Shown here one piece after another: positions 9,772 through 56,629 of a DNA stretch of 64,000 nucleotides; within the stretch, counting starts at the first letter, position 1; each line of letters begins with the position of its first letter. The notes beneath the pieces were generated by a model. That model was not told where the DNA came from, searched no databases, and worked only from the letters and a program-made list of their open reading frames with translations. The translations under genes were made by a program, and so were the position numbers. The stretch lies in assembly GCF_988243305.1 (NCBI RefSeq), contig NZ_OZ547136.1. One strand, 5' to 3'.

Positions 9772-9773
9772 CT

Positions 9774-10613: not shown

Positions 10614-10647
10614 AGGTTGTTCTCCCGGCTTATGAGCTGGTTTGCTT

Positions 10648-12868: not shown

Positions 12869-12870
12869 TC

Positions 12871-13314: not shown

Positions 13315-13319
13315 GACGA

Positions 13320-16701: not shown

Positions 16702-16934
16702 TGGTATCGCCATTTTACCCGATGCTGCGTAACGCCTTATAACTTCAGCAATGAAGCGATGTCTGTGGTACATGGACATCACAGCGGGGGTGTGGGTCCG
16801 GGTTGCCAGGGTGGTGGAGATTGAGCCACCCTGGCACGTTCACCGGCTTGAGCGTTCCATAGTAGCGAGGAACATCAAGTGAACGGAACAGCCTTCGATC
16901 TTACATATTCAGAATATAATGGTGCCGCCACGAA

Positions 16935-16972
16935 CGCCTGATGCGACGCTTTACGCGTCTTATCAGGCCTAC
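16935..16972. repeat. REP element downstream of asmA
   Basis: gcctgatgcgacgctttacgcgtcttatcaggcctaca palindrome. Confidence 0.7.
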
Positions 16973-16992
16973 AGGACAGGTCACCTGGTAAA

Positions 16993-18846: not shown

Positions 18847-18867
18847 GGTATCCTCAATGGGCCTGAA

Positions 18868-19449: not shown

Positions 19450-19540
19450 GGCATTTTCTCCTTTCGTGCATCACTCCCTTAACGCCAATTACGTCAAGGG
19501 CATACCAGGTTATCACTGAACGGTACACAATTTATCAAGC

Positions 19541-20182
19541 TTATTCAAAGAACTGACTTATTTTCGCTTTCAATATATCGATGGCGATGCGGTTTTTCCC
19601 GCCGCGCGGCACGATAATGTCCGCATATTGTTTAGAAGGCTCAATGAATTGCAGGAACATCGGACGCACGGTTTTTTGATATTGCGCCATCACTGAATCC
19701 ATTGAACGCCCACGCTCGTTAACGTCACGCTTGATGCGGCGCATCAGGCAGATATCCAGCGGGGTATCAACGAAAATTGAGAAGTTAAGTTCATCACGCA
19801 AACGCGCATCCGTTAGCAGCAAAATGCCTTCGAGAATGATGACTTTCTTCGGCTCAACCGTCACCGTTTCTTTCATACGCGTATGTTCAACATAGCTGTA
19901 AACCGGCAGGTCAATTGCCGAGCCGCGTTTCAACGCTTGTAAATGCTCAAGCAGCAGGCTGTGATCCATCGCGCTGGGATGGTCGTAGTTGGTCTTAACG
20001 CGTTCTTCCATCGACAGATGGCTTTGATCTTTGTAATAGCAGTCTTCGGGAATTACGCCGATGTGTTCATCACCGACTTGCTCACGTAATTCACGATAAA
20101 GGGTACTGGCAATAAGACTCTTGCCGGAAGCCGATGCGCCAGCGATACCGATAATGACGCACTGATGAGACTGATCAGTCAT
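19541..20182 (-). CDS. udk: Uridine/cytidine kinase
   Basis: ORF track gives 234 aa; I start at [26 protein letters not shown] (213 aa, ATG 20180-20182), with Walker A GASASGKS. Confidence 0.92.
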
Positions 20183-20499
20183 ATATTTAGCGACCTGATT
20201 AACCTGGATGTTAGGAAGGGGGCGACGAAGCGCCAAACGCGGCAATTATAGGGATTTCATCCGCCTGATACCAGTCGAATAGCGTTGCCGCGCGCTCAGA
20301 GTTAATTGTTGACAAAGAATTCCCGGTGGCAAATTACGTTGATCAGTTTTATACAAGGTAAAAAATGTTATACGCCGTTGCGCAAATTATCCGCCTTTAC
20401 GTCACTTTATGAGCAATTCGCATATAAAATGTAAAACTTTTGTACTAGCATAAACACAGAAACGAATACTGGCGACCTGGTCTTGCGGATAAAGCGGTA

Positions 20500-35886: not shown

Positions 35887-38800
35887 GTGAAGTTTTTTGC
35901 CCTCTTCATTTACCGCCCGGTGGCGACGATTTTACTGTCGGTCGCCATTACCCTGTGCGGCATACTGGGCTTCCGTATGCTGCCGGTCGCCCCACTGCCG
36001 CAGGTCGATTTTCCGGTGATTATGGTCAGCGCCTCGCTGCCCGGTGCGTCACCAGAAACAATGGCGTCTTCCGTTGCCACGCCGCTGGAACGTTCGCTTG
36101 GGCGCATTGCCGGGGTCAGTGAAATGACCTCCAGCAGTTCGCTCGGCAGCACGCGCATTATTTTGCAGTTTGATTTTGACCGCGATATCAACGGCGCAGC
36201 GCGCGATGTGCAAGCGGCGATCAACGCCGCGCAAAGTTTGCTGCCCAGCGGGATGCCCAGCCGTCCGACCTATCGCAAAGCGAACCCGTCGGATGCGCCA
36301 ATTATGATCCTGACGCTAACATCCGATACTTATTCGCAAGGTGAACTGTACGATTTTGCCTCGACGCAGCTGGCTCCGACGATTTCGCAAATCGACGGTG
36401 TCGGTGATGTCGATGTTGGCGGCAGCTCGCTACCTGCGGTGCGCGTCGGGCTGAACCCGCAGGCGCTGTTTAATCAGGGCGTGTCGCTGGACGATGTGCG
36501 CACCGCCATCAGCAATGCCAACGTGCGTAAACCGCAGGGGGCGCTGGAAGATGATACTCACCGCTGGCAGATCCAGACTAACGATGAACTGAAAACCGCC
36601 GCTGAATATCAGCCGTTGATTATTCATTACAACAACGGCGGCGCGGTTCGTCTGGGCGATGTGGCGACGGTGACCGACTCTGTACAAGATGTACGTAACG
36701 CCGGGATGACCAACGCCAAACCGGCTATTTTGCTGATGATCCGCAAGCTGCCGGAAGCCAATATAATCCAGACGGTTGACAGCATCCGGGCAAAATTACC
36801 GGAGTTGCAGGAGACCATTCCGGCGGCGATTGATCTGCAAATTGCCCAGGATCGCTCCCCCACCATTCGCGCCTCGCTGGAAGAAGTCGAGCAAACGCTG
36901 ATTATCTCGGTGGCGCTGGTGATTCTGGTGGTGTTTTTATTCCTGCGCTCGGGTCGCGCCACTATTATTCCCGCCGTTGCGGTGCCGGTTTCGCTGATTG
37001 GTACGTTTGCGGCGATGTACCTGTGCGGATTCAGTCTCAATAACCTGTCGTTAATGGCGCTCACTATTGCTACTGGTTTCGTGGTGGATGACGCCATCGT
37101 GGTGCTGGAAAACATTGCCCGTCACCTGGAAGCGGGGATAAAACCACTACAGGCCGCACTGCAAGGTACTCGCGAAGTCGGTTTTACGGTGCTGTCGATG
37201 AGTCTTTCACTGGTGGCGGTGTTTCTGCCGCTGCTGTTGATGGGCGGATTGCCGGGCCGACTGTTACGCGAGTTTGCCGTGACGCTTTCTGTCGCCATTG
37301 GTATTTCGTTGCTGGTTTCCCTGACGCTAACGCCGATGATGTGTGGCTGGATGCTGAAAGCCAGCAAGCCGCGCGAGCAAAAGCGACTGCGTGGTTTTGG
37401 TCGCATGTTGGTAGCCCTGCAACAAGGCTATGGCAAGTCGCTGAAATGGGTGCTCAATCATACCCGTCTGGTGGGCGTGGTGCTGCTTGGCACCATTGCG
37501 CTGAATATCTGGTTATATATCTCGATCCCGAAAACCTTCTTCCCGGAGCAGGATACCGGCGTCCTGATGGGTGGGATACAGGCGGATCAGAGTATTTCGT
37601 TTCAGGCAATGCGCGGTAAGTTGCAGGATTTTATGAAAATTATCCGTGACGATCCGGCGGTGGATAATGTTACCGGCTTTACCGGCGGTTCGCGGGTGAA
37701 CAGCGGGATGATGTTTATCACGCTGAAGCCACGCGGCGAACGCAGCGAAACGGCGCAGCAAATTATCGACCGTCTGCGCGTGAAGCTGGCGAAAGAACCG
37801 GGGGCGAATCTGTTCCTGATGGCGGTACAGGATATTCGCGTTGGCGGACGTCAGTCGAACGCCAGCTACCAGTACACGTTGTTATCCGACGACCTGGCGG
37901 CACTGCGCGAATGGGAGCCGAAAATCCGCAAAAAACTGGCGACATTGCCGGAACTGGCGGACGTGAACTCCGACCAGCAGGATAACGGCGCGGAGATGAA
38001 TCTGGTTTACGACCGCGACACCATGGCACGGCTGGGAATCGACGTGCAAGCCGCCAACAGTCTGTTAAATAACGCCTTCGGTCAGCGGCAAATCTCGACC
38101 ATTTACCAGCCGATGAACCAGTATAAAGTGGTGATGGAAGTGGATCCGCGCTATACCCAGGACATCAGCGCGCTGGAAAAAATGTTCGTTATCAATAACG
38201 AAGGAAAAGCGATCCCGCTGTCGTATTTCGCTAAATGGCAACCGGCGAATGCTCCGCTGTCGGTGAATCATCAGGGATTATCGGCAGCCTCGACCATCTC
38301 GTTCAACCTGCCGACCGGGAAATCGCTCTCGGACGCCAGTGCAGCGATCGATCGCGCAATGACCCAGCTTGGTGTGCCTTCGACGGTGCGCGGTAGTTTT
38401 GCCGGCACGGCGCAGGTGTTCCAGGAGACGATGAACTCGCAGGTGATCCTGATTATCGCCGCCATCGCCACGGTGTATATCGTGCTGGGTATCCTTTACG
38501 AGAGTTACGTACATCCGCTGACGATTCTCTCCACCCTGCCCTCGGCGGGCGTTGGAGCGCTGCTGGCGCTGGAGCTGTTCAATGCCCCGTTCAGCCTAAT
38601 CGCCCTGATAGGGATCATGCTATTAATCGGCATCGTGAAGAAAAACGCCATTATGATGGTCGATTTTGCGCTTGAAGCCCAACGGCACGGTAACCTGACG
38701 CCGCAGGAAGCTATTTTCCAGGCCTGTCTGCTGCGTTTTCGCCCGATTATGATGACTACCCTGGCGGCGCTGTTTGGTGCGCTGCCGCTGGTATTGTCAG

Positions 38801-38964
38801 GCGGTGACGGCTCGGAGTTGCGGCAACCATTGGGGATCACCATTGTCGGCGGTCTGGTCATGAGCCAGCTTCTGACGCTGTATACCACGCCGGTGGTGTA
38901 TCTCTTTTTCGACCGTCTGCGGCTGCGTTTTTCGCGTAAACCTAAACAAACGGTAACCGAGTAA
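35887..38964 (+). CDS. mdtC: RND multidrug efflux transporter permease MdtC
   Basis: 1025-aa ORF paralogous to MdtB ([25 protein letters not shown]...). Confidence 0.92.
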
Positions 38965-40380
38965 ATGACAGATCTTCCCGACAGCACCCGCTGGCAATTG
39001 TGGATTGTGGCTTTCGGCTTCTTTATGCAGTCGCTGGACACCACCATCGTTAACACCGCGCTTCCCTCAATGGCGCAAAGTCTCGGGGAAAGTCCGTTGC
39101 ATATGCACATGGTCATTGTCTCTTATGTACTGACCGTGGCGGTGATGCTGCCCGCCAGCGGCTGGCTGGCGGACAAAGTCGGCGTGCGCAATATTTTCTT
39201 TACCGCCATCGTGCTGTTTACTCTCGGTTCACTGTTTTGCGCGCTTTCCGGCACGCTGAACGAACTGTTGCTGGCACGCGCGTTACAGGGCGTTGGCGGT
39301 GCGATGATGGTGCCGGTCGGCAGGTTGACGGTGATGAAAATCGTACCGCGCGAGCAATATATGGCGGCGATGACCTTTGTCACGTTACCCGGTCAGGTCG
39401 GGCCGCTGCTCGGTCCGGCGCTCGGCGGCCTGCTGGTGGAGTACGCCTCCTGGCACTGGATCTTTTTGATCAACATTCCGGTGGGGATTATCGGTGCGAT
39501 CGCCACACTGATGTTAATGCCGAACTACACCATGCAGACGCGGCGCTTTGATCTCTTCGGCTTTTTATTGCTGGCGGTTGGCATGGCGGTATTAACCCTG
39601 GCGCTGGACGGCAGTAAAGGTACAGGTTTATCGCCGCTGGCGATTGCTGGCCTGGTCGCAGTTGGCGTGGTAGCACTGGTGCTTTATCTGCTGCACGCCA
39701 GAAATAACAACCGCGCTCTTTTCAGTCTGAAACTGTTCCGTACTCGTACCTTTTCGCTGGGCCTGGCGGGGAGTTTTGCCGGACGTATCGGTAGCGGCAT
39801 GTTGCCCTTTATGACGCCGGTTTTCCTGCAAATTGGCCTTGGCTTCTCACCGTTTCATGCCGGACTGATGATGATCCCGATGGTGCTCGGCAGCATGGGG
39901 ATGAAGCGAATTGTGGTACAGGTGGTGAATCGCTTTGGTTATCGTCGGGTACTGGTGGCGACCACGCTGGGTCTGTCGCTGGTCACCCTGTTGTTTATGA
40001 CTACCGCCCTGCTGGGCTGGTACTACGTTTTGCCGTTCGTCCTGTTTTTACAAGGGATGGTCAACTCGACGCGTTTCTCCTCCATGAACACCCTGACGCT
40101 GAAAGATCTCCCGGACAATCTGGCGAGCAGCGGAAACAGCCTGCTGTCGATGATTATGCAATTGTCGATGAGTATCGGCGTCACCATCGCCGGGCTGTTG
40201 CTGGGACTTTTTGGTTCGCAGCATGTCAGCGTCGACAGCGGCACCACACAAACCGTCTTTATGTACACCTGGCTTAGCATGGCGTTTATCATTGCCCTTC
40301 CGGCGTTCATCTTTGCCAGAGTGCCGAACGATACGCATCAAAATGTAGCTATTTCGCGGCGAAAAAGGAGCGCGCAATGA
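38965..40380 (+). CDS. mdtD: MFS-family efflux transporter MdtD
   Basis: 471-aa hydrophobic ORF with MFS 14-TM features; immediately follows mdtC. Confidence 0.9.
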
Positions 40381-41780
40381 AGTTCTGGCGACCCGGTATT
40401 ACCGGCAAACTGTTTCTGGCGATTTTCGCCACCTGCATTGTCTTGCTGATCAGTATGCACTGGGCGGTGCGTATCAGTTTTGAGCGTGGCTTTATTGATT
40501 ACATCAAACACGGCAATGAACAGCGATTACAGCTGTTAAGTGATGCGCTTGGCGAGCAGTATGCGCAGCATGGCAACTGGCGCTTCCTGCGCAACAACGA
40601 TCGCTTTGTCTTTCAGATCCTGCGTTCATTTGAACACGATAATTCGGAAGATAAACCCGGCCCGGGTATGCCTCCGCACGGCTGGCGTACTCAGTTCTGG
40701 GTGATCGATCAAAACAACAAAGTGCTGGTTGGTCCGCGAGCGCCGATTCCACCTGACGGTACACGGCGACCCATTCTGGTCAACGGTGCGGAAGTGGGTG
40801 CGGTGATTGCCTCCCCTGTTGAGCGACTGACCCGCAATACTGATATCAATTTCGATAAACAACAGCGGCAAACCAGCTGGCTGATTGTCGCCCTGGCTAC
40901 GTTACTCGCGGCACTCGCCACCTTTCTGCTGGCGCGTGGTCTGTTGGCCCCGGTCAAACGGCTGGTGGACGGCACGCACAAACTGGCGGCGGGCGATTTC
41001 ACTACCCGCGTGACACCCACCAGTGAAGATGAACTGGGCAAACTGGCGCAAGACTTCAACCAGCTTGCCAGCACGCTGGAGAAAAACCAGCAAATGCGGC
41101 GCGATTTTATGGCCGATATTTCTCACGAACTGCGTACGCCATTAGCGGTGCTGCGCGGTGAACTGGAAGCCATTCAGGATGGCGTGCGTAAATTCACGCC
41201 GGAGACGGTGGCGTCTTTACAGGCGGAGGTCGGTACACTGACCAAACTGGTTGACGATCTCCATCAGTTGTCGATGTCTGATGAAGGCGCTCTCGCCTAT
41301 CAAAAAGCACCGGTAGATTTGATCCCACTGCTGGAAGTGGCGGGCGGCGCATTTCGCGAACGATTCGCCAGCCGTGGCCTGAAACTGCAATTTTCCCTGC
41401 CAGACAGTATTACCGTATTTGGCGATCGCGACCGTTTAATGCAGTTATTCAATAACTTACTGGAAAACAGCCTGCGCTACACTGACAGCGGCGGTAGCCT
41501 GAAAATCTCTGCCGAGCAGCACGACAAAACGGTGCGACTGACCTTTGCCGACAGCGCGCCGGGCGTCAGTGACGATCAGCTACAAAAATTGTTTGAACGT
41601 TTTTATCGCACCGAAGGTTCCCGCAACCGAGCCAGCGGCGGTTCCGGGCTGGGGCTGGCGATTTGCCTGAACATTGTTGAAGCACATAATGGTCGCATTA
41701 TTGCTGCCCATTCGCCTTTTGGCGGGGTAAGCATTACAGTAGAGTTACCGCTGGAACGGGATTTACAGAGAGAAGTATGA
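40377..41780 (+). CDS. baeS: Envelope-stress sensor histidine kinase BaeS
   Basis: 467-aa ORF with TM segments, H-box ISHELRTPL and an ATPase G-box (GSGLGLAI); 4-nt overlap with mdtD. Confidence 0.92.
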
Positions 41781-42499
41781 CCGAGTTACCAATCGACGAA
41801 AACACACCGCGTATTTTGATCGTGGAAGATGAACCGAAGCTGGGGCAGTTACTCATTGATTATCTGCGTGCTGCGAGCTATGCGCCAACGTTGATTAGCC
41901 ACGGCGATCAGGTACTGCCATATGTACGCCAGACACCACCGGATCTGATTCTGTTGGATCTTATGCTTCCTGGCACCGATGGCCTGACGCTGTGCCGGGA
42001 GATTCGTCGTTTTTCTGACATTCCGATCGTGATGGTGACAGCAAAAATCGAAGAGATCGACCGCCTGCTGGGGCTGGAAATTGGCGCAGATGACTACATC
42101 TGCAAACCGTACAGCCCACGGGAAGTGGTAGCGCGCGTCAAAACCATTTTGCGCCGTTGCAAACCGCAACGCGAACTTCAGCAACAGGATGCCGAAAGCC
42201 CGTTGATTATCGACGAAGGTCGTTTTCAGGCTTCATGGCGCGGTAAAATGCTTGACCTGACGCCTGCGGAATTTCGTCTGTTGAAAACGCTCTCTCATGA
42301 ACCAGGAAAAGTGTTCTCCCGCGAGCAATTGCTCAATCATCTTTATGACGACTACCGCGTAGTAACCGACCGCACCATCGACAGCCACATTAAAAACCTG
42401 CGTCGCAAGCTGGAATCTCTCGACGCCGAACAGTCCTTTATCCGTGCCGTTTACGGCGTCGGTTACCGCTGGGAAGCCGACGCCTGCCGCATCGTTTAA
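41777..42499 (+). CDS. baeR: OmpR-family response regulator BaeR
   Basis: 240-aa ORF with a receiver domain (ILIVEDEP...[11 protein letters not shown]) and a winged-helix C-terminus; overlaps the baeS stop. Confidence 0.93.
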
Positions 42500-42678
42500 C
42501 ATTTTTTCCTGCCGGAGAAGGCATTCACGCCGCATCCGGCAACATTATCCCACGCATGGTCAGCAAACTGACATTATCTCTCCGCCCTGGCAACCGCCTG
42601 AAAATCGCTCATACTTTAATCGGTAAACAGTTCTTTTAGATGCTGTTTTCGATACGCAATTTCAATCAAGGAGTCATT

Positions 42679-43011
42679 ATGGCTGGTTGGTTTGAACTCA
42701 GTAAGAGCAGTGATAATCAGTTCCGGTTTGTGCTAAAAGCGGGCAATGGTGAGACTATCCTCACCAGCGAGCTATATACCTCAAAAGCCTCTGCGGAAAA
42801 GGGTATCGCGTCGGTGCGTAGCAACAGCCCGCAAGAAGAACGCTATGAGAAAAAAACGGCAAGCAACGGCAAATTCTATTTCAATCTGAAAGCCGCCAAT
42901 CATCAAATTATCGGCTCCAGCCAGATGTACGCCACCGCGCAATCTCGTGAAACCGGAATTGCCTCCGTTAAAGCCAATGGCACAAGCCAGACGGTGAAAG
43001 ACAATACGTAA
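42679..43011 (+). CDS. yegP: UPF0339/DUF1508 family protein YegP (two internal repeats)
   Basis: ORF track start is upstream; I start at MAGWFELSKSSDNQFRFVLKAGNGETI (110 aa, ATG 42679), preceded by RBS aggagt. The two halves are homologous (FRFVLKAGNGETILTSELYTSKASAEKGIASVRSN vs FYFNLKAANHQIIGSSQMYATAQSRETGIASVKAN). Confidence 0.82.
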   Translation: MAGWFELSKSSDNQFRFVLKAGNGETILTSELYTSKASAEKGIASVRSNSPQEERYEKKTASNGKFYFNLKAANHQIIGSSQMYATAQSRETGIASVKANGTSQTVKDNT

Positions 43012-43158
43012 TTACGATGCCGGGCGTGGGTTGTTGGCGTCCGGCGCTTTACCAGCTCCCCCCTACAGCGCTACAATGCCCGCCCTTAAAGTGGGGGCAC
43101 TCCCCTGGCCGCTTCATCAGGTGAAGCGGATCTGACCTGTCATCAGAACGAGAGAATT

Positions 43159-44520
43159 ATGTTTAAACCGGAACTCCTTTCCCCGGCGGGAACGCTGAAA
43201 AATATGCGTTACGCTTTCGCTTATGGCGCAGATGCTGTTTATGCGGGCCAGCCGCGTTACTCCCTGCGTGTGCGCAACAACGAATTTAACCACGAAAATC
43301 TTCAGCTCGGCATCAATGAAGCCCACGCGCTGGGGAAAAAGTTTTATGTCGTGGTCAACATTGCACCGCACAACGCCAAGCTGAAAACCTTTATCCGTGA
43401 CCTGAAACCGGTGGTGGAAATGGGGCCGGATGCGCTGATTATGTCCGATCCGGGGCTGATTATGCTGGTGCGCGAGCACTTCCCTGAAATGCCGATCCAT
43501 CTCTCAGTACAGGCTAACGCCGTGAACTGGGCGACGGTGAAATTCTGGCAGCAAATGGGTCTGACCCGCGTGATCCTCTCTCGCGAACTGTCACTGGAAG
43601 AGATTGAAGAGATCCGCAATCAGGTGCCAGATATGGAGATCGAAATCTTCGTTCACGGCGCGCTGTGCATGGCCTACTCCGGTCGCTGCCTGCTCTCTGG
43701 CTATATCAACAAGCGCGACCCGAACCAGGGCACCTGCACCAACGCCTGCCGCTGGGAGTACAACGTCCAGGAAGGGAAAGAAGATGACGTTGGCAACATC
43801 GTGCACAAGTACGAGCCGATTCCGGTGCAAAATGTTGAGCCGACGCTGGGTATCGGCGCACCAACTGACAAAGTGTTTATGATCGAAGAAGCCCAGCGTC
43901 CGGGCGAGTATATGACCGCGTTTGAAGATGAGCACGGCACTTACATCATGAACTCGAAAGATCTGCGCGCTATCGCCCACGTTGAACGCCTGACCAAAAT
44001 GGGCGTGCATTCGCTGAAAATCGAAGGCCGTACTAAATCTTTCTACTATTGCGCACGCACCGCACAGGTTTACCGTAAAGCTATCGATGACGCCGCTGCG
44101 GGCAAACCGTTCGATACCAGCCTGCTGGAAACTCTGGAAGGTCTGGCGCATCGTGGCTATACCGAAGGTTTCCTGCGTCGTCATACTCACGACGATTATC
44201 AGAACTACGAATACGGTTATTCAGTTTCTGACCGCCAGCAGTTTGTTGGTGAGTTTACCGGTGAGCGCAAGGGCGACCTCGCGGCGGTAGCGGTGAAAAA
44301 TAAATTCTCCGTTGGCGACAGCCTTGAGCTGATGACGCCGCAAGGGAACATTAACTTTACCCTTGAGCAGATGGAAAACGCCAAAGGCGAAGCAATGCCG
44401 GTCGCACCGGGCGATGGTTATACTGTGTGGATCCCGGTCCCGCAGGATCTTGAGCTAAATTACGCGCTGCTGATGCGTAATTTCTCCGGGGAAACCACGC
44501 GTAACCCACACGGTAAGTGA
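43159..44520 (+). CDS. yegQ: Peptidase U32-family protein YegQ (TrhP; associated with tRNA ho5U34 hydroxylation)
   Basis: 453-aa ORF MFKPELLSPAGTLKNMRYAFAYGADAVYAGQPRYSLR, a typical U32 N-terminus. Confidence 0.88.
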   Translation: MFKPELLSPAGTLKNMRYAFAYGADAVYAGQPRYSLRVRNNEFNHENLQLGINEAHALGKKFYVVVNIAPHNAKLKTFIRDLKPVVEMGPDALIMSDPGLIMLVREHFPEMPIHLSVQANAVNWATVKFWQQMGLTRVILSRELSLEEIEEIRNQVPDMEIEIFVHGALCMAYSGRCLLSGYINKRDPNQGTCTNACRWEYNVQEGKEDDVGNIVHKYEPIPVQNVEPTLGIGAPTDKVFMIEEAQRPGEYMTAFEDEHGTYIMNSKDLRAIAHVERLTKMGVHSLKIEGRTKSFYYCARTAQVYRKAIDDAAAGKPFDTSLLETLEGLAHRGYTEGFLRRHTHDDYQNYEYGYSVSDRQQFVGEFTGERKGDLAAVAVKNKFSVGDSLELMTPQGNINFTLEQMENAKGEAMPVAPGDGYTVWIPVPQDLELNYALLMRNFSGETTRNPHGK

Positions 44521-44604
44521 TTAATTTCGATTATTTTTCCCGGATGGAAAATTCTTAGAAACCGATCACATACAGCTGCATTTATTAAGGTTATCATCCG
44601 TTTC

Positions 44605-44691
44605 GCTGAAAAACATAACCCATAAAATGCTAGCTGTACCAGGAACCACCTCCTTAGCCTGTGTAATCTCCCTTACACGGGCTTATTTTTT
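44605..44691 (+). ncRNA. cyaR: CyaR (RyeE) Hfq-dependent, CRP-activated sRNA
   Basis: GCTGAAAAACATAACCCATAAAATGCTAGCTGTACCAGGAACCACCTCCTTAGCCTGTGTAATCTCCCTTACACGGGCTTATTTTTT read on the plus strand matches my recollection of E. coli CyaR, including the terminator hairpin and U-tract. Confidence 0.8.
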
Positions 44692-44849
44692 ATGCATAGG
44701 CCCTATCCCTGGTCACCGTCTTCCATTGACCACATCGATAGAATCTCCCTTCATAGCACGATGCCTTTCACGTAACGGCATCGTGCTCGCACTAGTTCCG
44801 GCTAAGCACAACCAGAACGCGCATGTTTGACGCTTACCAAAAAATATTC

Positions 44850-45167
44850 TCACTCTCCACATTTGAATGTCAGACGAGCGACGCCATGTAATCCTGCACC
44901 TTCTGTCTTCAGGTCAACTATCTGCATTTTTTTGCCCTGAGTAACACAGAAATGAGCTGCATCATTTTTTACTATATTTTCTGCACCAGATATTCTGCCC
45001 CTGGCTAAAGAAGCTTCGGCTTCGGTGTAGTATTGGTTATCGAGTTTACGCTGAATATTACTTTTATATGCAAGACCAAATTTACCGATACTTGTCTCAT
45101 CATTATGTACAGCACACCCAGACATAAGAAAAACACTAATTAATGATATAGCAGCTATCTTTTTCAT
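44850..45167 (-). CDS. yegR: Small lipoprotein YegR
   Basis: Track ORF 125 aa; I start at MKKIAAISLISVFLMSGCAVHN (105 aa, ATG 45165-45167), which carries a lipobox. Confidence 0.8.
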   Translation of the reverse strand: MKKIAAISLISVFLMSGCAVHNDETSIGKFGLAYKSNIQRKLDNQYYTEAEASLARGRISGAENIVKNDAAHFCVTQGKKMQIVDLKTEGAGLHGVARLTFKCGE

Positions 45168-45581
45168 CTTACCTTCCCCCATTAAATACCAACGACACGC
45201 TCTGGTGTTAAAATATAATAATGGCATGATTATTATAATTGAATAGGATTATAATAAATGTTCTGTACAACATTTCCTACATAAGTAGGAATTACAAACA
45301 TGAAGCCCTGCCCAGGTATCCCCATGAGGGCTTTAATATATTTAGAATAAGATAGTGAAGATGCCACTGTTTAGTTGAATATTAGGTATATGCTCTTTTT
45401 TGAAATTTACCGGTGGCTACCGTTAACATTCACTGTCCCCATTGCAAGCTCCTGGTGGTAACCACTGAATCCTCCATACTTGAACTGACTTTTTATCCTC
45501 CGACTTTCATCCTGTTCTGACTCCACCTTTTCTTTTCTGCTCTACACTATCTACAGACCAATCATAAAGGCACATACGATC

Positions 45582-46481
45582 ATGGCAGAATTTCCCGCCA
45601 GCTTACTGATTCTTAATGGCAAAAGTACTGACAATTTACCATTGCGCGAAGCAATTATGCTGTTGCGTGAGGAAGGAATGACGATCCATGTGCGGGTCAC
45701 CTGGGAGAAAGGCGATGCCGCACGATATGTAGAGGAGGCCCGGAAGTTGGGCGTCGCAACGGTGATTGCCGGTGGTGGCGATGGCACCATTAATGAAGTT
45801 TCTACGGCGTTGATTCAGTGTGAGGGGGATGACATACCCGCGCTGGGAATTTTGCCATTAGGAACCGCCAATGATTTTGCCACCAGTGTAGGGATTCCTG
45901 AGGCACTGGATAAGGCGCTGAAACTGGCAATTGCCGGTAACGCCATTGCGATAGATATGGCGCAGGTCAACAAACAAACCTGTTTTATTAATATGGCGAC
46001 AGGCGGGTTTGGGACGCGTATTACCACAGAAACGCCGGAAAAATTAAAAGCCGCGCTGGGTGGCGTCTCTTACATCATTCATGGCTTAATGCGCATGGAC
46101 ACTCTGCAACCGGACCGTTGTGAGATCCGCGGTGAAAACTTTCACTGGCAAGGTGACGCCCTGGTCATTGGTATTGGTAACGGGCGTCAGGCCGGTGGCG
46201 GTCAACAATTGTGCCCGAACGCGTTAATTAACGATGGCTTGCTGCAACTGCGCATTTTTACCGGCGATGAAATTCTTCCGGCTCTCGTATCAACCTTAAA
46301 ATCTGACGAAGATAACCCGAATATTATCGAAGGCGCTTCGTCGTGGTTTGATATACAAGCCCCACACGAAATCACTTTTAATCTTGATGGCGAACCGTTG
46401 AGCGGACAAAACTTTCATATTGAAATACTTCCGGCGGCGTTGCGTTGTCGATTACCACCGGATTGTCCATTATTGCGTTAA
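45582..46481 (+). CDS. yegS: Lipid kinase YegS (diacylglycerol-kinase-like catalytic domain)
   Basis: 299-aa [21 protein letters not shown]...GGDGTINEV, a DAGK_cat signature. Confidence 0.9.
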
Positions 46482-46519
46482 TCAAACTATTCTCTCTTGA
46501 ACCAGGGAGAAACAGTTAT

Positions 46520-46553
46520 GCCGGATGCGGTATAAACACCTTATCCGGCCTAC
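46520..46553. repeat. REP element between yegS and gatR
   Basis: gccggatgcggtataaacaccttatccggcctac palindrome. Confidence 0.65.
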
Positions 46554-46562
46554 TGAACAATA

Positions 46563-47342
46563 CTACACCGTAATTAATTTCACCCGTGTCTTCTGCAATG
46601 CCAGTTTATCCACCTCTGACACGGCATCATCGGTAATAATAATGTCGATTTTTTCGATTGGCAGTACCTGATTAAAACCGCGACGATTAAATTTCGATGA
46701 ATCGAGAACGGCAATCACTTTATTTGCGGCTGTGACCATCGCCCCGCTAATCGAATAACCTTCATTAAAGGTCGTAATACCATTAACCGCATCAATACCA
46801 TCAGCACCGACAAACATTAAATCGGCATTAATATCCTGCAATGAACGCTCGGCAATGGAACCATGCATCGAGCGTGTTTTATGGCGGACGGTCCCACCAC
46901 AGACGACCAGAGTAATGTCTTTATTTTCGGAAAGGGCAAACGCCGCCGGGAGACTGTTGGTAATCACCGTGATATTTTTGGCGGTCATTAAACCTTCGGC
47001 GATAAGCATTGTGGTACTTCCGCTGTCGAGAATAACGGTCATCCCTTCGTGGATCATTTTGACTGCCGCCTGCGCTATTCTGTTTTTTGGCGCACTGGCG
47101 AGCTGAAATCGCTCTTTAAACCCAACTTCCTGGGTCTCGGTTTCACTATTACCGGACATTATTTTCGCCGCACCGCCATGAAAGCGCGTAACTACGCCTT
47201 TTTGTTCGAGAAAGCGCAAATCGGCACGGATTGTCGCTTCCGAGGCAGCAAATACTCCCGCCAGATCCTGAACAAGCACGGTTCCCTGTTCATTCACTAA
47301 TTGGATGATCTTATTCCTTCGCTCGAATGAATTCATCGTCAT
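46563..47342 (-). CDS. gatR: DeoR-family transcriptional repressor of the galactitol operon (intact)
   Basis: 259-aa uninterrupted ORF MTMNSFERRNKIIQLVNEQGTVLVQDLAGVFAASEATIRADLRFLEQKGVV (DeoR HTH) plus a C-terminal sugar-binding domain. Confidence 0.88.
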   Translation of the reverse strand: MTMNSFERRNKIIQLVNEQGTVLVQDLAGVFAASEATIRADLRFLEQKGVVTRFHGGAAKIMSGNSETETQEVGFKERFQLASAPKNRIAQAAVKMIHEGMTVILDSGSTTMLIAEGLMTAKNITVITNSLPAAFALSENKDITLVVCGGTVRHKTRSMHGSIAERSLQDINADLMFVGADGIDAVNGITTFNEGYSISGAMVTAANKVIAVLDSSKFNRRGFNQVLPIEKIDIIITDDAVSEVDKLALQKTRVKLITV

Positions 47343-47441
47343 TTACCCATATTCAATTGTGGCTAGTGTAAACGAAGGGGGACCATTGGTGAATGATCTG
47401 TTTTGCACAATACCGGGCCAGCATCACGCTGGCCCGCGGTT

Positions 47442-48482
47442 TCAGGGAATGAGCAACACTTTGCCCGGCATAGCATTACGAGCGATGTCACGCACCGCCT
47501 GGGCGAAGCTTTCAAAGCTTCCACGGTGAGCGATTAATGGCTCCAGGCTTAACTTACGTTCTGTCAGCAACCGGCTCGCCGTTTCCCACTCCTGCCCCGG
47601 CCAAGGGCTGGAGTAGTTCATCCAGCTGCCGATAACCGTCAGCTCTTTACGCAATATTTTGCCAAACGTTGCCGATGTTAAATGCAGATCCTGATGCAAC
47701 GTGCCCACCAGCGCCAGCTGGGCATGAGGCCCGGCAATCTCTACCGCCAGTTCGACGGTTTGCGGGACGCCAGCCGTCTCGAGGATAAGCTGATTAAAGC
47801 GCAGTTCGCGTAAAACGCTCTGCATTTGCGGCGCGCTCATTTCGCTACTGTTAAATGTTTGCATCGCACCGAAAGATTTTGCCAGTGCCAGTTTTTCTGA
47901 GCTAATGTCGATAGCCGTCACACTCTTTGCTCCCAGCGCGACAGCGCACTGAATTGCCAGCAGGCCAATGGTTCCGGCACCAATAATAATAACGTTTTTA
48001 TTCTCACAACCTTGCGCTAAATGAAAAGCATGCAGGCCAACGGTAATCGGTTCAATAAAAGCCCCATCCTCAATAGGCATATCCGTGGGTAGAGCAAAGA
48101 CATTTTTTCGCTTAACGACAATATATTCAGCAAATCCACCATCACGCCGCGAGCCAATAAAATCATATTTTGCGCACTGGGAATAAAACCCTTTCAAACA
48201 CTCTGGACAAGTAAAACAGGGTAATAACGGCACACAGGCAACCGCATCGCCAGGGTGTAAATCATCAACACCGGATCCCACCGCATCAATATAGCCGCTA
48301 AATTCATGGCCTAACGTTATTGGATAATAATGTGCACCATTTTTAAATATCCTGGGTAAATCGGAACCACATAAGCCCGAGCTGGTAATTTTTACCCGTA
48401 CCTCATCCTGATGTTTAATTTCAGGAATGACGCTTTCTGCAACGCGCACGATACCATCAGTATCATTCACCACTGATTTCAT
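47442..48482 (-). CDS. gatD: Galactitol-1-phosphate 5-dehydrogenase (Zn-dependent MDR family)
   Basis: 346-aa ORF with MDR zinc-ligand motifs (GHEFSG, CxxCxxC) and a Rossmann GAGTIG motif. Confidence 0.92.
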   Translation of the reverse strand: MKSVVNDTDGIVRVAESVIPEIKHQDEVRVKITSSGLCGSDLPRIFKNGAHYYPITLGHEFSGYIDAVGSGVDDLHPGDAVACVPLLPCFTCPECLKGFYSQCAKYDFIGSRRDGGFAEYIVVKRKNVFALPTDMPIEDGAFIEPITVGLHAFHLAQGCENKNVIIIGAGTIGLLAIQCAVALGAKSVTAIDISSEKLALAKSFGAMQTFNSSEMSAPQMQSVLRELRFNQLILETAGVPQTVELAVEIAGPHAQLALVGTLHQDLHLTSATFGKILRKELTVIGSWMNYSSPWPGQEWETASRLLTERKLSLEPLIAHRGSFESFAQAVRDIARNAMPGKVLLIP

Positions 48483-48529
48483 AAAAACTCCTGATTGTTA
48501 AGGGGGATTACCTCCCCCTCAGGTAAAAA

Positions 48530-49885
48530 TTATTCTGCGAGAACGGCTTTCTCTTGTTTAATAAAACCACGCGCTCTACGCCAGGTCATGAAAATACCGG
48601 TCAGATAAATTGCGCCGATAATAATGAAACCGGGAATATTTTGCGGGGAGAAAACCTGAATCAGTAACCAGGTAATGGGAGAACCGCCCTGATCCATTGA
48701 AGCCACCATACCCCCGGCTTTTAACGCCCCAGCATTAGCCGCCAGTTGGGTGTGCAAACCAATAGTTTGCGTCGCGATCCACAGGGTGATGCTCATAATG
48801 ATGACACCCGAGATTAAGGTGCGGAACAGATTTCCACGATGCACGGCAACTGCCATCGCCACAAAGAAGCCGATAGTTGCAAGATCGCCAAACGGCAGCA
48901 CCTGATTACCCGGCACACAAACAGCAATTAAAATGGTGAGCGGGATAAAAATCAGGCTTGCCGATACCACCGCCGTATGCCCCAGCAGCAACGCCGGATC
49001 AAGGCCAATCAGGAACTCCTGACCGCCGAACTTCGCCTGTAAACGACTACGGGCCTGCTTAGCGATGGGCGTTAAACCATCCATGATGGGTTTAATCACC
49101 CGTGGCATCAGCAGCATCACCGCCGCCGTTTTTACCGCCAGCTGCAATACACCTTTGACATCGTAACCCGCGAGGATGCCGATAATCAGCCCCATCACAA
49201 AACCCACGGTGACAGGCTCGCCAAACGGACCAAATTTGCGCTGAATATCGTCGGCGCTAAATTTAATACGGTTAACGCCTGGGATTTTCTCGATGATAGC
49301 ATCCACCAGCACCGCAATTGGCCCCAGATACGCCGACGTACCGTGCGGAATAGCAATGCCTTCCAGCTCAAAGAAATTTCGGGTATCGCGGGCAAACCAG
49401 TCGCCGAGCTTATAAACAAACGCCGCGTGAATTACCACACCCGCCATCCCTATCATCCATGAACCGGTTGCCAGATGCAGCAACGCGCCGGTGAAGGTCA
49501 TATGCCAGATATTCCAGATATCAACATTTACCACCCGCGTCATACGGGTCAGTAGCATCGCCACGTTAACCAGAATCGCAATCGGAATCGCCACCAGCGC
49601 AATTTGCGACGCCCAGGTCATTGGTGAAGAGCCCGGCCAACCGACATCGACCACATGCAGATTCAGGTCGAAATTTTCCGCCATCGCTTTCGCCGCCGGG
49701 CCAATGGAATCCAGCATTAAGCCAATCACAAGGCCAATGCCAACAAAGCCAATCCCGATATGCAGACCTGCTTTAAAGCAATCGCCTGCCTTCATGCCTA
49801 ATATTTTAGAAAAAATAATGATGACAATCGGTAGCATCACCGTAGGGCCGAGGTCGAGAATATAACGCATGACTTCTGAAAACAT
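48530..49885 (-). CDS. gatC: PTS galactitol-specific EIIC component
   Basis: 451-aa polytopic membrane ORF within the gat operon. Confidence 0.92.
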   Translation of the reverse strand: MFSEVMRYILDLGPTVMLPIVIIIFSKILGMKAGDCFKAGLHIGIGFVGIGLVIGLMLDSIGPAAKAMAENFDLNLHVVDVGWPGSSPMTWASQIALVAIPIAILVNVAMLLTRMTRVVNVDIWNIWHMTFTGALLHLATGSWMIGMAGVVIHAAFVYKLGDWFARDTRNFFELEGIAIPHGTSAYLGPIAVLVDAIIEKIPGVNRIKFSADDIQRKFGPFGEPVTVGFVMGLIIGILAGYDVKGVLQLAVKTAAVMLLMPRVIKPIMDGLTPIAKQARSRLQAKFGGQEFLIGLDPALLLGHTAVVSASLIFIPLTILIAVCVPGNQVLPFGDLATIGFFVAMAVAVHRGNLFRTLISGVIIMSITLWIATQTIGLHTQLAANAGALKAGGMVASMDQGGSPITWLLIQVFSPQNIPGFIIIGAIYLTGIFMTWRRARGFIKQEKAVLAE

Positions 49886-49888
49886 AGG

Positions 49889-50173
49889 TCACCCCTGTAA
49901 GATAGTCAGAATTTTATTTTGTAATGCTTCGATACCGACACCAGAAACAAAAGGCATGCCGTGAACTAACGGAATATCGCCAAAACTACGGTCAACTTTG
50001 GCGGTAGTACATATCAAATGCACGCCATCCATATAGGTTTCTATTTCATTAACCCGACACTGGATTAATTCAACAGGAATATTATGACTCTGACACAACT
50101 CTTTAATTTCTTCCGCCGCCATCGTAGAGGTCGCAACCGCGCCTCCGCAAGCGACAATAATCTTGCGTTTCAT
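49889..50173 (-). CDS. gatB: PTS galactitol-specific EIIB component
   Basis: 94-aa [26 protein letters not shown], with the EIIB active-site Cys region. Confidence 0.92.
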
Positions 50174-50203
50174 AAATAGTCCTTTTTATTGTTACAGAGG
50201 GAT

Positions 50204-50656
50204 TTATTCGTCTGAATCTAAAACATACTTTGTGAAGTATTCCTTTAACTGGGTTTCAGGAAGAGTGATTAGTGTCTCGACGATATCGGGCTGTTGTAAC
50301 TTGCCAAATAAACAGCGTAAAAGTTTCAATTGCTGCTGCGGATTTTCCACAATCAACGCAATAACCAACGATACCGCCACGTCATTATCATCATCCGCTT
50401 GCTGAAAATGAACTTTATTTGTTGGCCTTAACAGATAAATGGCTGACGACTTAGCATGAATCGCCTCACAATGCGGTATTGCGATGGCGTGCTGCTCAAG
50501 CATTATCCCGGTAGGGAATTCTGCTTCTCTGGCAATTAATGCCTGTGGCCAGGTATCATGAACCACACCTTTCGCGAGCATCTCATTACCGATATGGGTT
50601 AAAACTTCGCTACGATCGGCAAAAGAAATTCCGCTACGAACAAACAGGTTAGTCAT
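50204..50656 (-). CDS. gatA: PTS galactitol-specific EIIA component
   Basis: 150-aa ORF; operon position between gatZ and gatB. Confidence 0.9.
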   Translation of the reverse strand: MTNLFVRSGISFADRSEVLTHIGNEMLAKGVVHDTWPQALIAREAEFPTGIMLEQHAIAIPHCEAIHAKSSAIYLLRPTNKVHFQQADDDNDVAVSLVIALIVENPQQQLKLLRCLFGKLQQPDIVETLITLPETQLKEYFTKYVLDSDE

Positions 50657-50665
50657 ATACCATCC

Positions 50666-52865
<2,200 letters not shown>

Positions 52866-53041
52866 TTAAATGTCGAGATAACGATCACAAAAACGACAAT
52901 ATGAAAATTGTTCGAGGAGTGAAAGGCAAAAAAAACGGCCTCCCGATAGGGAAGCCGTAGCAAAGTGCGCGTGTTTTTATGCCGGATGCGACGTAAACGC
53001 CTTTTCCGTCATACGTGGTAGTGCTGTTCGTATAAGGCGTA

Positions 53042-54094
53042 TCAGGCGATAGTAATTTTGCTATCGAGATAAACGTCCTGCACGGCGTTAATCAGTTTCA
53101 CGCCGTCAGCCATCGATTTCTTGAACGCCTTACGTCCAAGAATCAGCCCCATTCCGCCAGCGCGTTTGTTGATGACCGCAGTACGCACTGCATCGCTGAG
53201 GTCAGTTTCACCGCCTGCAGCACCGCCGGAGTTTATCAACCCTGCCCGGCCCATATAGCAGTTAGCTAACTGATAACGCACCAGATCAATCGGGTTTTCG
53301 CTGGTCAATTTGCTATAAACACGATCGTCGGTATAACCGTAATTAATCGCTTTATAGCCGCCGTTATTTTCCGCCATTTTTTGTTTGACGATATCCGCAC
53401 CTATAGTCGCCGCCAGATGGTTTGCCTGACCGGTCAGGTCGGCGGAAACATGGTAATCAACGCCATCTTTCTTAAAGGCGGAGTTACGCAAATAGGCCCA
53501 CAGCACTGTCACCATGCCCAGCTCGTGCGCACGTTCAAAAGCCGCAGAAATTTCTTCAATCTGGCGTCGTGACTCTTCCGAGCCAAAATAGATAGTCGCC
53601 CCAACCGCCACCGCGCCCATGTTGAACGCCTGCTCCACGCTGGCATACAGCGTTTGATCGTAGGTATTCGGGTAACTTAGCGTCTCGTTGTGATTAAGTT
53701 TGACGAGGAATGGAATGCGATGCGCGTAACGCCGCGATACCGACGCCAGCACGCCGTAAGTTGACGCCACGCAGTTACAGCCCGCTTCGATCGCCAGTTC
53801 AACAATGTTTTTCGGGTCAAAGTAGAGCGGGTTAGCGGCAAATGAAGCTCCGGCAGAGTGCTCAACGCCCTGGTCAACCGGCAGAATAGAAAGATATCCT
53901 GTGCCAGCCAGACGCCCAGTGTTGTACAACGTCTGCATATTACGTAACACCGCTGGCGGGCGATTATTGTCAATCATCACGCGGTCTACGTAGTCATGTC
54001 CGGGGAGATAAAGCTGGTCAGAAGGAATAGTCATACAACGGTGCTGTAAAAGGTTGTCGGCGTCTTTGCCAAGCAACTGCGCAATATCTGTCAT
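53042..54094 (-). CDS. fbaB: Fructose-bisphosphate aldolase class I
   Basis: Track ORF 374 aa; I start at [32 protein letters not shown] (350 aa, ATG 54092-54094). Confidence 0.9.
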
Positions 54095-54350
54095 TACTAT
54101 GCTCCCGTAAATTCCGATTGGATATCGGCTATGGATTGTCCTGGCCCGCCTTTTGCGGGCAATCATAATCCTGGTCGTTACAGGCGAGTTTTTCCATCTT
54201 TTGGATGTTTTTTCAGCGTTTTCTGTTGGCTCGATTCATCAGAAAAAATGTTACCGCGGTCAAGTTTTCACCGCAAAGGTATTTAAAAGGTATTATTAAA
54301 TGGTATTGTCATCGCGTACCTTACATTACCTGTCATGAAGGAATTAAAAG

Positions 54351-55628
54351 ATGAAAACAACAGCAAAGCTGTCGTTCATGATGTTTGTTGAATGGTTTAT
54401 CTGGGGCGCGTGGTTTGTGCCATTGTGGTTGTGGTTAAGTAAAAGCGGTTTTAGTGCCGGAGAAATTGGCTGGTCGTATGCCTGTACCGCCATTTCGGCG
54501 ATCCTGTCGCCAATTCTGGTTGGCTCCATCACTGACCGCTTTTTCTCGGCGCAGAAAGTGCTGGCGGTATTGATGTTCGCTGGCGCGGTACTGATGTATT
54601 TCGCTGCGCAACAGACCACTTTTGCCGGGTTCTTCCCGTTACTGCTGGCCTACTCGCTAACCTATATGCCGACCATTGCGCTGACTAACAGTATCGCTTT
54701 TGCCAACGTGCCGGATGTGGAGCGTGATTTCCCACGCATTCGTGTGATGGGCACTATCGGCTGGATTGCCTCCGGTCTGGCATGTGGATTTTTGCCGCAA
54801 ATGCTGGGTTATGCCGATATCTCTCCGACTAACATCCCGCTGCTGATTACCGCCGGAAGTTCTGCTCTGCTCGGTGTGTTTGCGTTTTTCCTGCCCGACA
54901 CGCCGCCAAAAAGCACCGGCAAAATGGACATTAAAGTCATGCTCGGCCTGGATGCGCTGATCCTGCTGCGCGATAAAAACTTCCTCGTCTTTTTCTTCTG
55001 TTCATTTCTGTTTGCGATGCCACTGGCGTTCTATTACATCTTTGCCAACGGTTATCTGACCGAAGTTGGCATGAAAAACGCCACCGGCTGGATGACGCTC
55101 GGCCAGTTCTCTGAAATCTTCTTTATGCTGGCATTGCCGTTTTTTACCAAACGCTTTGGTATCAAAAAGGTATTATTGCTTGGTCTGGTCACCGCTGCGA
55201 TCCGCTATGGCTTCTTTATTTACGGTAGTGCGGATGAATATTTCACCTACGCGTTACTGTTCCTCGGTATTTTGCTTCACGGCGTAAGTTACGATTTTTA
55301 CTACGTTACCGCTTACATCTATGTCGATAAAAAAGCCCCCGTGCATATGCGTACCGCCGCGCAGGGGCTGATCACGCTCTGCTGCCAGGGCTTCGGCAGT
55401 TTGCTCGGCTATCGTCTTGGCGGTGTGATGATGGAAAAGATGTTCGCTTATCAGGAACCGGTAAACGGGCTGACCTTCAACTGGGCCGGGATGTGGACTT
55501 TTGGCGCGGTGATGATTGCCATTATCGCCGTGCTGTTCATGATTTTTTTCCGCGAATCCGACAACGAAATTACGGCTATCAAGGTCGATGATCGCGATAT
55601 TGCGTTGACACAAGGGGAAGTTAAATGA
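54351..55628 (+). CDS. yegT: Nucleoside:H+ symporter-family MFS transporter YegT
   Basis: 425-aa hydrophobic ORF MKTTAKLSFMMFVEWFIWGAWFVPLWLWL, resembling the NupG/XapB family. Confidence 0.85.
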   Translation: MKTTAKLSFMMFVEWFIWGAWFVPLWLWLSKSGFSAGEIGWSYACTAISAILSPILVGSITDRFFSAQKVLAVLMFAGAVLMYFAAQQTTFAGFFPLLLAYSLTYMPTIALTNSIAFANVPDVERDFPRIRVMGTIGWIASGLACGFLPQMLGYADISPTNIPLLITAGSSALLGVFAFFLPDTPPKSTGKMDIKVMLGLDALILLRDKNFLVFFFCSFLFAMPLAFYYIFANGYLTEVGMKNATGWMTLGQFSEIFFMLALPFFTKRFGIKKVLLLGLVTAAIRYGFFIYGSADEYFTYALLFLGILLHGVSYDFYYVTAYIYVDKKAPVHMRTAAQGLITLCCQGFGSLLGYRLGGVMMEKMFAYQEPVNGLTFNWAGMWTFGAVMIAIIAVLFMIFFRESDNEITAIKVDDRDIALTQGEVK

Positions 55629-56629
55629 AAACAGAACGTATTCTCGGTGCTCTTTACGGGCAGGCGTTAGGGGATGCGATGGGGATGCCCTCCGAGCTTT
55701 GGCCACGCAGCCGCGTTAAAGCACACTTTGGCTGGATTGACCGTTTTCTGCCTGGACCAAAGGAGAATAACGCGGCCTGTTATTTTAACCGCGCCGAATT
55801 CACCGACGATACCTCGATGGCGCTGTGTCTGGCGGATGCGTTGCTGGAACGTGAAGGCAAGATCGATCCGGATCTGATTGGGCGTAATATTCTCGACTGG
55901 GCGCTACGTTTCGACGCCTTCAACAAAAACGTGCTAGGTCCGACCTCGAAGATTGCGCTTAACGCCATTCGCGACGGTAAACCCGTTGCTGAACTGGAAA
56001 ACAACGGCGTGACCAACGGCGCAGCGATGCGCGTCTCGCCATTAGGTTGTTTGCTTCCGGCGCGCGATGTTGATTCCTTTATTGATGATGTGGCGCTGGC
56101 GTCCAGCCCGACCCATAAATCCGATCTGGCGGTTGCAGGTGCGGTAGTCATCGCGTGGGCAATTTCTCGTGCCATTGACGGAGAAAGCTGGTCAGCGATT
56201 GTTGATTCTCTACCCTCGATTGCGCGACATGCACAGCAAAAACGCATCACCACCTTCAACGCCTCACTGGCGGCGCGGCTGGAGATTGCGCTGAAAATTG
56301 TGCGCAATGCCGACGGCACCGAATCCGCCAGCGAACAGCTTTACCAGGTCGTTGGCGCAGGTACCAGCACTATTGAGTCCGTTCCGTGCGCCATTGCGCT
56401 GGTTGAACTGGCTCAAACCGACCCGAACCGTTGCGCCGTCCTGTGCGCTAACCTTGGCGGCGACACAGACACCATCGGTGCTATGGCAACAGCAATTTGC
56501 GGCGCGTTGCATGGCGTTAAAGCAATCGATCCTGCGTTAAAGACGGAACTGGATGCGGTAAATCAGCTTGATTTCAACCGCTATGCCACAGCGCTGGCGA
56601 AATATCGTCAACAACGGGAGGCGGTATGA
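55625..56629 (+). CDS. yegU: ADP-ribosylglycohydrolase-family protein YegU
   Basis: 334-aa ORF MKTERILGALYGQALGDAMGMP, the typical DraG/ARH family N-terminus; overlaps the yegT stop by 4 nt. Confidence 0.85.
   Translation: MKTERILGALYGQALGDAMGMPSELWPRSRVKAHFGWIDRFLPGPKENNAACYFNRAEFTDDTSMALCLADALLEREGKIDPDLIGRNILDWALRFDAFNKNVLGPTSKIALNAIRDGKPVAELENNGVTNGAAMRVSPLGCLLPARDVDSFIDDVALASSPTHKSDLAVAGAVVIAWAISRAIDGESWSAIVDSLPSIARHAQQKRITTFNASLAARLEIALKIVRNADGTESASEQLYQVVGAGTSTIESVPCAIALVELAQTDPNRCAVLCANLGGDTDTIGAMATAICGALHGVKAIDPALKTELDAVNQLDFNRYATALAKYRQQREAV

Follow-up and report, generated by a model that had tools for sequence, protein, structure and literature searches.

Several structured RNA genes carry phages at their 3' ends, among them tRNA genes, the tmRNA gene ssrA and the small RNA gene rybB, the last being used by other P2-like phages. 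Phage P2 integrates by means of Int, a tyrosine recombinase that binds the core and the arm sites of attP and, together with host IHF, recombines the attP core with an identical chromosomal core. The primary attachment site of P2 was reportedly characterized in E. coli C, in 1989 and 1992, and free sites have been known since the P2 attachment sites and the K-12 remnant were described. We take the attB of E. coli C considered here to be the one called locI in the P2 literature, the K-12 copy of which is reported to be blocked by a P2 remnant.

The RNA gene used by P2 and its relatives is cyaR, also known as ryeE, which serves as insertion site for Wphi2 (P2) in strain W, for 'ogr-D'' in K-12 and for P2*B in B, and which is empty in Crooks (Archer et al. 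2011, PMC3032704, Table 2). In E. coli, ryeE has also been treated as an already known phage target, citing Wassarman et al. 2001, in a work that discusses the general rule that integrases target the conserved ends of RNA genes (Bobay et al. 2013, PMC3603311). Since both sources cover cyaR/ryeE as a P2 target of variable occupancy, the observation of a free site is established knowledge. As at other RNA-gene attachment sites, core and conserved terminator or stem overlap, so that insertion rebuilds the RNA gene and the target is kept across hosts; the difference from tRNA sites is that the target here is the terminator of CyaR. Here we describe this site in a 64-kb stretch of E. coli DNA (hereafter the window) and compare it with occupied, remnant-bearing and empty sites in other genomes. 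The only element that is mildly new is that the reference 'empty' site appears to be itself the scar of an older insertion, which would be of modest interest if confirmed.

Gene layout around cyaR

The interval is organized as follows.

43159-44520, plus strand: yegQ/trhP (tRNA hydroxylase), conserved left neighbour of cyaR; 453-aa ORF, E. coli annotation of matching features
44521-44604, plus strand: yegQ-cyaR spacer, which holds the cyaR promoter region; identical to K-12
44605-44691, plus strand: cyaR (ryeE) small RNA gene; RF00112 and coordinate transfer from K-12
44656-44691, plus strand: intrinsic terminator of CyaR, with an 11-pair stem, a 6-nt loop and a T-run; terminator scan and Rfam consensus paired region
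44757-44790, no strand assigned: perfect 11-bp inverted repeat downstream of yegR (AGCACGATGCC...GGCATCGTGCT); sequence inspection
44850-45167, minus strand: yegR, 105-aa putative lipoprotein of the YegR family PF27694; ORF and annotation in matching genomes
45582-46481, plus strand: yegS (lipid kinase), conserved right neighbour; 299-aa ORF, yegS annotation in K-12 and E. coli C

The Rfam family CyaR_RyeE (RF00112) matches 44603-44688 on the plus strand with 100.7 bits, against a gathering threshold of 47 (E 9.6e-20), and the match covers model positions 1-85 of 85. Carrying over the K-12 annotation (b4438, positions 3115-3201 of the K-12 locus L001) by pairwise alignment places the gene at 44605-44691, the same coordinates that an earlier note, made from the letters of the window, had given. 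From the yegQ stop codon to the end of cyaR (44521-44691) all 171 positions match K-12, including the region upstream of cyaR. CyaR expression is activated by CRP-cAMP and is Hfq-dependent; the K-12 identity of gene and promoter predicts CRP dependence and Hfq-dependent expression for the window copy as well.

The stop codon of yegR is the lowest coordinate, 44850, of its minus-strand ORF. The 158 bp between cyaR and yegR (44692-44849) hold no genes, as the earlier note had stated, the ORF list giving short mechanical ORFs only; the note had given the same position for the yegR stop. Sequence of ogrK or yegZ is absent from these 158 bp. The terminator of CyaR (44656-44683 plus the T-run) is the sole terminator-like site that the terminator scan reports within 44500-45600. 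The inverted repeat at 44757-44790 lies 60-90 nt past the end of yegR, and the fold of the surrounding 123 nt on the minus strand (44730-44852) has a z score of -3.2. As a canonical terminator this repeat was rejected: the scan skips it because no T-run follows. Beyond yegS, the repressor gene gatR (46563-47342) is intact in the window as a 259-aa ORF; in K-12 it is split by IS3E.

The P2 attachment core

The last 27 bases of cyaR, that is, the 3' half of the terminator hairpin together with the T-run, form the P2 core.

44665-44691, no strand assigned: P2 attachment core (attB, unoccupied), 27 bp, AATCTCCCTTACACGGGCTTATTTTTT; identity to the attP core of P2 AF063097

The window agrees with the annotated attP core of AF063097 at 27 of 27 positions, or at 28 of 28 when counted through 44692. 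In the 64-kb window the core occurs as one exact copy, still as one when up to three mismatches are allowed, with a chance expectation of none, and the flanking sequences are contiguous. The two main proposals of the earlier note, a P2-type attachment site at the 3' end of cyaR and its being unoccupied in the window, are thus supported. Around attP, AF063097 is annotated in the order int, P' arm, Cox sites, core, IHF site, P arm, ogr terminator and ogr, which agrees with the gene order in the prophage of strain A7 and in the K-12 remnant PR-X.

Between cyaR and yegR, K-12 MG1655 carries this 'cryptic prophage PR-X', 629 bp as annotated, with ogrK and the pseudogene yegZ, which bears out the remnant that the earlier note had placed there. 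Direct adjacency of cyaR and yegR, which was looked for in K-12 as the finding that would speak against the note, is not seen there, since PR-X intervenes. The remnant is bounded by an exact core at the cyaR end and by a degenerate core on the yegR side, and in the alignment to the window the cyaR gene of K-12 is unchanged despite the insertion. K-12 and the window share the integration point, identical copies of cyaR and its core, and the right flank, which in K-12 comes after the remnant; the window, in contrast, carries neither the remnant nor the degenerate second core. The alignments to K-12 and to the P2 attachment sequences that the earlier note had proposed show PR-X as a single gap, with no matching ORFs in the window, and a core equal to that of attP.

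Strain A7 shows the fully occupied state, a complete P2-like prophage at the cyaR-yegR junction, where the integrase gene adjoins yegR and a second exact core precedes the same right flank as in the window. The P2-like prophages at cyaR (Wphi2 in W and P2*B in B, PMC3032704, and that of A7) use the same core and have int on the yegR side and ogr and D on the cyaR side, whereas in the window the core stands as a single copy and int, ogr and D are absent. The classical P2 host, E. coli C, is likewise empty; it shares with the window the yegQ-cyaR-yegR layout, the 27-bp core and the right flank together with the arm-like stretch described below. The window differs from it by a T-run of 6 instead of 7 T and by about 10 substitutions in the 158-bp flank, the core of the window being complete.

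We therefore read 44521-44850 as the yegQ-yegR intergenic region with an intact cyaR and an unoccupied P2 attB inside its terminator, and assign this reading a probability of about 0.93; none of the evidence contradicts an empty attB. The window strain is thus neither of the K-12 remnant type nor a lysogen at this site. By what is known of P2, Int and IHF would carry out strand exchange at 44665-44691 between attP and attB, whose cores are identical, and because the core is duplicated the prophage would come to lie between cyaR and yegR with the 3' end of CyaR rebuilt unchanged. PR-X, consisting of ogrK and the gene D fragment yegZ, would represent the decayed ogr-side end of such a P2-like prophage. 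Judged from the sequence, P2-type phages and integrase-based tools could be expected to integrate at this core without damage to CyaR.

Natural variation of the core was seen within the terminator stem. At 44679, A replaces G in ST131 and in one divergent Escherichia, ACACAGGC standing for ACACGGGC, so that an A-U pair takes the place of a G-U pair and the P2 core acquires one mismatch. Most other genera have ACGCAGGC or ACGCGGGC in the same stretch. The attachment core thus co-varies with the terminator stem of CyaR. A 10-mer at 44741-44750, AATCTCCCTT, repeats the start of the core and was considered as a nested attachment remnant; we give it no weight, as K-12 and E. coli C read AATCCTCCTT and the exact match is therefore lineage-specific.

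A decayed P2 arm next to the core

Two features were recognized immediately to the right of the core.

44692-44739, no strand assigned: vestige of a P2-type attP right arm, comprising the IHF-site region with a 16-nt gap and then the Int 'P arm' site; alignment to P2 and PR-X
44728-44735, plus strand: surviving copy of the Int arm-type motif, GACCACAT; motif G(T/A)CCACA(C/T)

The earlier note had stated that no P2-like remnant lies between cyaR and yegR. This is right for ogrK and yegZ, but it does not hold for 44692-44739, where the P2 attP arm survives in decayed form. Local alignment of this stretch to P2 and PR-X gives 27 matching columns out of 31 with two 1-nt gaps, and a score of 38 against a mean of 15.8 (sd 2.2) for shuffled sequences, none of 2000 shuffles scoring as high. 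In a multiple alignment with four attP/attL arms the match reaches back to the core: ATGCAT stands against ACGCGT, the 16-nt gap in the IHF-site region follows, and further on CTGGTCACCGTCTTCCATTGACCACATCGA stands against CTGGTCACGTCCACACATTGACCACATCGA. The P2 segment matched by the window flank is the one annotated in AF063097 as the Int 'P arm' binding site. K-12, E. coli C, ST131 and A7 have this arm-like flank as well.

The motif G(T/A)CCACA(C/T) is present in both annotated Int arm sites of P2, and its shorter form G(T/A)CCACA occurs twice in the P' arm. The window flank keeps one intact repeat, at 44728-44735, and one decayed repeat; the window as a whole shows no enrichment of the motif. 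Because the motif is also found in the P' arm it is intrinsic to the phage, which makes transfer from phage to chromosome the likelier direction. It is a speculative idea that the surviving arm-type site beside the core might influence the use of the site by P2.

Two records in which core and flank sequences are filed under phage names were set aside. The phage record vB_EcoM-720R8 matches the core and the right flank but was rejected as evidence for a phage origin of the flank, being a prophage cut-out with host yegR, yegS and gatR, and 'Phage TP' AY639599 is a K-12-like chromosomal fragment and was rejected as phage evidence.

The low-GC island between cyaR and yegS

The arm vestige is the left end of a longer stretch that sets E. 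coli apart from its relatives.

44692-45500, no strand assigned: low-GC island of 809 bp, made up of the arm vestige, the hairpin, yegR and an AT-rich region; comparison with E69 and Enterobacter
45168-45467, no strand assigned: AT-rich region upstream of yegR, part of the island; GC content and homology search
45468-45494, no strand assigned: possible degenerate second attachment core at the right end of the island, AATCCTCCATACTTGAACTGACTTTTT; 18/27 ungapped identity to the core

A CyaR pattern scan across species, with one genome per species, returned at least 120 loci, E. fergusonii, E. marmotae and E. ruysiae not being among the loci listed. In 'E. coli E69', a divergent Escherichia that is 90-95% identical to the window, and in two Enterobacter loci, the yegS upstream region, homologous to the window from 45501/45504 on, sets in within 2-7 nt of the core. 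Relative to these genomes the window has an insertion of 809 bp that starts exactly at the 3' edge of the core. The island has a GC content of 39.9%, against 51.7% for the whole window, with 38.7% in yegR and 36.6% in 45168-45500, and it is absent from all 120 CyaR loci listed outside E. coli.

The direct cyaR-yegS junction of the E69 type was found in none of 5,423 complete E. coli genomes (0/5,423), so the island appears to be fixed in E. coli. In the single genome where the E69-type junction query was covered to 80% or more, about 500 bp separate its halves. NZ_CP068155.1 (FDAARGOS_1077) is the only complete E. coli genome with the cyaR and yegS halves within about 730 bp, which indicates a partial deletion inside the yegR island.

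At the right end, the similarity of 45468-45494 to the core is a weak match, with P of about 0.01 against random 36-mers of the window and about 0.03 against shuffled sequences. It ends 6 nt before the yegS-upstream homology begins, and the core of E69 ends 7 nt before the same homology, so that its place fits that of a second core. Neither the ORFs nor phage homology gave an integrase or any other phage gene in the island, the sole gene of which is yegR, and no homology of 45168-45467 to the native context of yegR (see below) or to bona fide phages was found.

Given that a decayed P2 arm follows the core and that an E. coli-specific low-GC spacer begins at the edge of the core, the 'empty' site is probably scarred by an older insertion into this same core. 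References for an 'empty attB' may thus already hold phage-derived sequence, and the scar would be a small example of how attachment sites in RNA genes gather layers of debris.

Origin of yegR

YegR belongs to a near-orphan family, PF27694, that is found almost solely in E. coli and Shigella; the local Pfam copy gave no match above threshold for YegR, and the family was assigned from precomputed annotation of its homologs. The closest homologs outside E. coli, with 68-82% identity, come from metagenome and run assemblies (L142-L145), where yegR stands in the order glutaminase, yegR, a 110-aa lipoprotein ORF, nitroreductase, ivy and acs. The glutaminase-to-acs neighbourhood is conserved and is apparently the native context of yegR, and it suggests a two-gene lipoprotein cassette consisting of yegR and the 110-aa ORF. 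Homology of the window to this context is confined to the coding sequence of yegR. Remoter homologs of YegR lie in further unrelated contexts. One of 51% identity, in Enterobacter sp. BIDMC 29, is found in an IS-rich region together with an omptin gene, transposases of the Tn3 family, the IS110 family and IS3 type (rve), and an MFS transporter, and from this context the family also occurs in transposon-rich, possibly mobile DNA.

A trace of the cassette is found in some E. coli strains.

44845/44846, no strand assigned: 170-bp indel, the extra bases being present in ST131/Nissle-type strains and missing in the window; pairwise alignment

In ST131/Nissle-type genomes the extra 170 bp (positions 1946-2115 of the locus L002) have a GC content of 30% and adjoin the yegR stop codon, and they were seen in about 6 of 30 evenly sampled genomes. 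The stretch is a relic of the N-terminus of the 110-aa neighbour gene (tblastn E 2e-7; 67% identity over 175 nt). The survival of this relic in ST131-type strains means that E. coli acquired a truncated fragment of the two-gene cassette; in the lineage of the window, as in K-12 and in E. coli C, the relic was lost afterwards. The resulting length difference of about 170 bp had been considered as an event at the attachment core and was rejected as such, being a separate indel.

Neither tblastn nor blastn found yegR or other DNA of the island in bona fide phages. YegR does match PHROG 21109 (E 2e-72), but this was treated as a host-flank artefact because yegR is found only in the records vB_EcoM-720R8 and AY639599. 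The fragment may have arrived as cargo of a P2-type element, or by insertion into an older remnant.

The first route belongs to a fuller scenario, in which the cyaR-yegS spacer, with yegR and in some lineages the relic of its partner, entered through an ancient P2-type integration, left the 48-nt arm and became fixed in E. coli, the pristine cyaR-yegS junction being retained in a divergent Escherichia lineage. We hold this scenario tentatively, at somewhat under even odds. The second route, according to which the yegR fragment entered a resident, decaying P2-like remnant by illegitimate or homologous recombination, so that the arm and the degenerate core merely frame yegR, is one that we regard as less likely than not. 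It agrees with the lack of phage genes in the interior of the island, with homology to the native yegR context that ends at the ends of the coding sequence, with a neighbour-gene relic truncated as a random fragment would be, and with the further indels seen in the spacer in the window flank, ST131 and K-12 alike. It still needs, however, an earlier P2-type integration at the core, and the arrival of yegR is the one point on which it departs from the reading of the site as a scar. The position of the orphan gene yegR is apparently due to the attachment hotspot.

Occupancy in complete E. coli genomes

The earlier note had suggested surveying this junction across E. coli for integrated elements, and this survey was run. 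The percentages below refer to 5,423 complete E. coli genomes with a match, a set biased to laboratory and clinical strains, so that the figures are descriptive.

Contiguous (empty) junction; 161-bp query, core and right flank; 4,212/5,423 (77.7%)
P2-type int-side junction; query of int, P' arm, core and flank; 817/5,423 (15.1%)
K-12-type remnant junction; query of yegZ, degenerate core and flank; 357/5,423 (6.6%)
None of the three junction classes; by subtraction; about 37/5,423 (0.7%)

The three classes together account for 99.3% of the genomes, and the empty site is the commonest state in E. coli. The window genome thus has its primary P2 integration site free, as have about four in five sequenced E. 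coli. Strain elppa10, which matches with the left half only, was considered as a 'pristine' junction and rejected; it is a lysogen without the right flank and one of the unclassed genomes.

These frequencies bear on the possibility that the site is empty because an earlier P2-like prophage or PR-X-like remnant was cleanly removed, by Int/Cox excision or by recombination between cores. Precise excision restores attB exactly and leaves no trace, and the P2-type int junctions in 15% of complete genomes speak for active turnover at the site. Nevertheless, emptiness is the majority state, a remnant like PR-X, which has no integrase and a degenerate right-hand core, is a poor candidate for clean removal, and the window itself holds no positive evidence for such an event, which makes this history unlikely.

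The earlier note had also expected the empty site to be useful for strain placement. The state does rule out a remnant of the K-12 type (6.6%) and lysogeny at this site (15%), but it says little beyond that, because 78% of the genomes share it. More can be learned from the nucleotide divergence of the window. None of 5,426 complete RefSeq E. coli genomes exceeds 98.3% identity to either of two 20-kb segments, 2000-22000 and 36000-56000, and the top-scoring strains differ between the two segments; the lineage of the window seems to be poorly represented among complete E. coli genomes.

CyaR loci in other hosts

Among the CyaR loci listed, those of Citrobacter youngae, C. amalonaticus and Citrobacter sp. 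R56 have a P2-type arm immediately after the core, and weaker or truncated arm matches follow it in an Enterobacter species, in Salmonella diarizonae and in E. albertii. The host core there differs by two or three bases. As arms adjoin the core in several genera, the CyaR terminator is a shared target of P2-like phages across the Enterobacteriaceae, in line with the rule on RNA-gene ends cited above.

That an ancestor of P2 instead captured host DNA beside the core by imprecise excision, 44692-44739 being the original host flank, is a reading for which it can be said that aberrant excision with packaging of flanking host DNA is a known process in temperate phages and that similarity itself carries no direction, but we consider it very improbable, given that the phage segment matched by the flank is annotated as an arm-binding site of Int and has a motif that recurs in the P' arm, that the full-length arm is found in phages and prophages of several genera while the host copy shows the gap of 16 nt in its IHF region and the decay of one repeat, and that the host flank is wholly missing in E69 and Enterobacter and restricted to E. 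coli among the 120 loci listed.

Two further loci were noted. E. albertii NBRC 107761 has about 3.4 kb of unrelated DNA between the CyaR core and yegS; this insert begins with a P2-type IHF region, its arm is truncated after GTCCAC, and, lying at the same site in a sister species, it is a decayed remnant of independent origin. The 9.7-kb contig JAIJJM010000051.1, labelled 'MAG: Collinsella sp.', has 100% identity to 44594-44691 of the window, the exact core and a full-length P2 arm, and is almost certainly a mis-binned E. coli/P2 contig.
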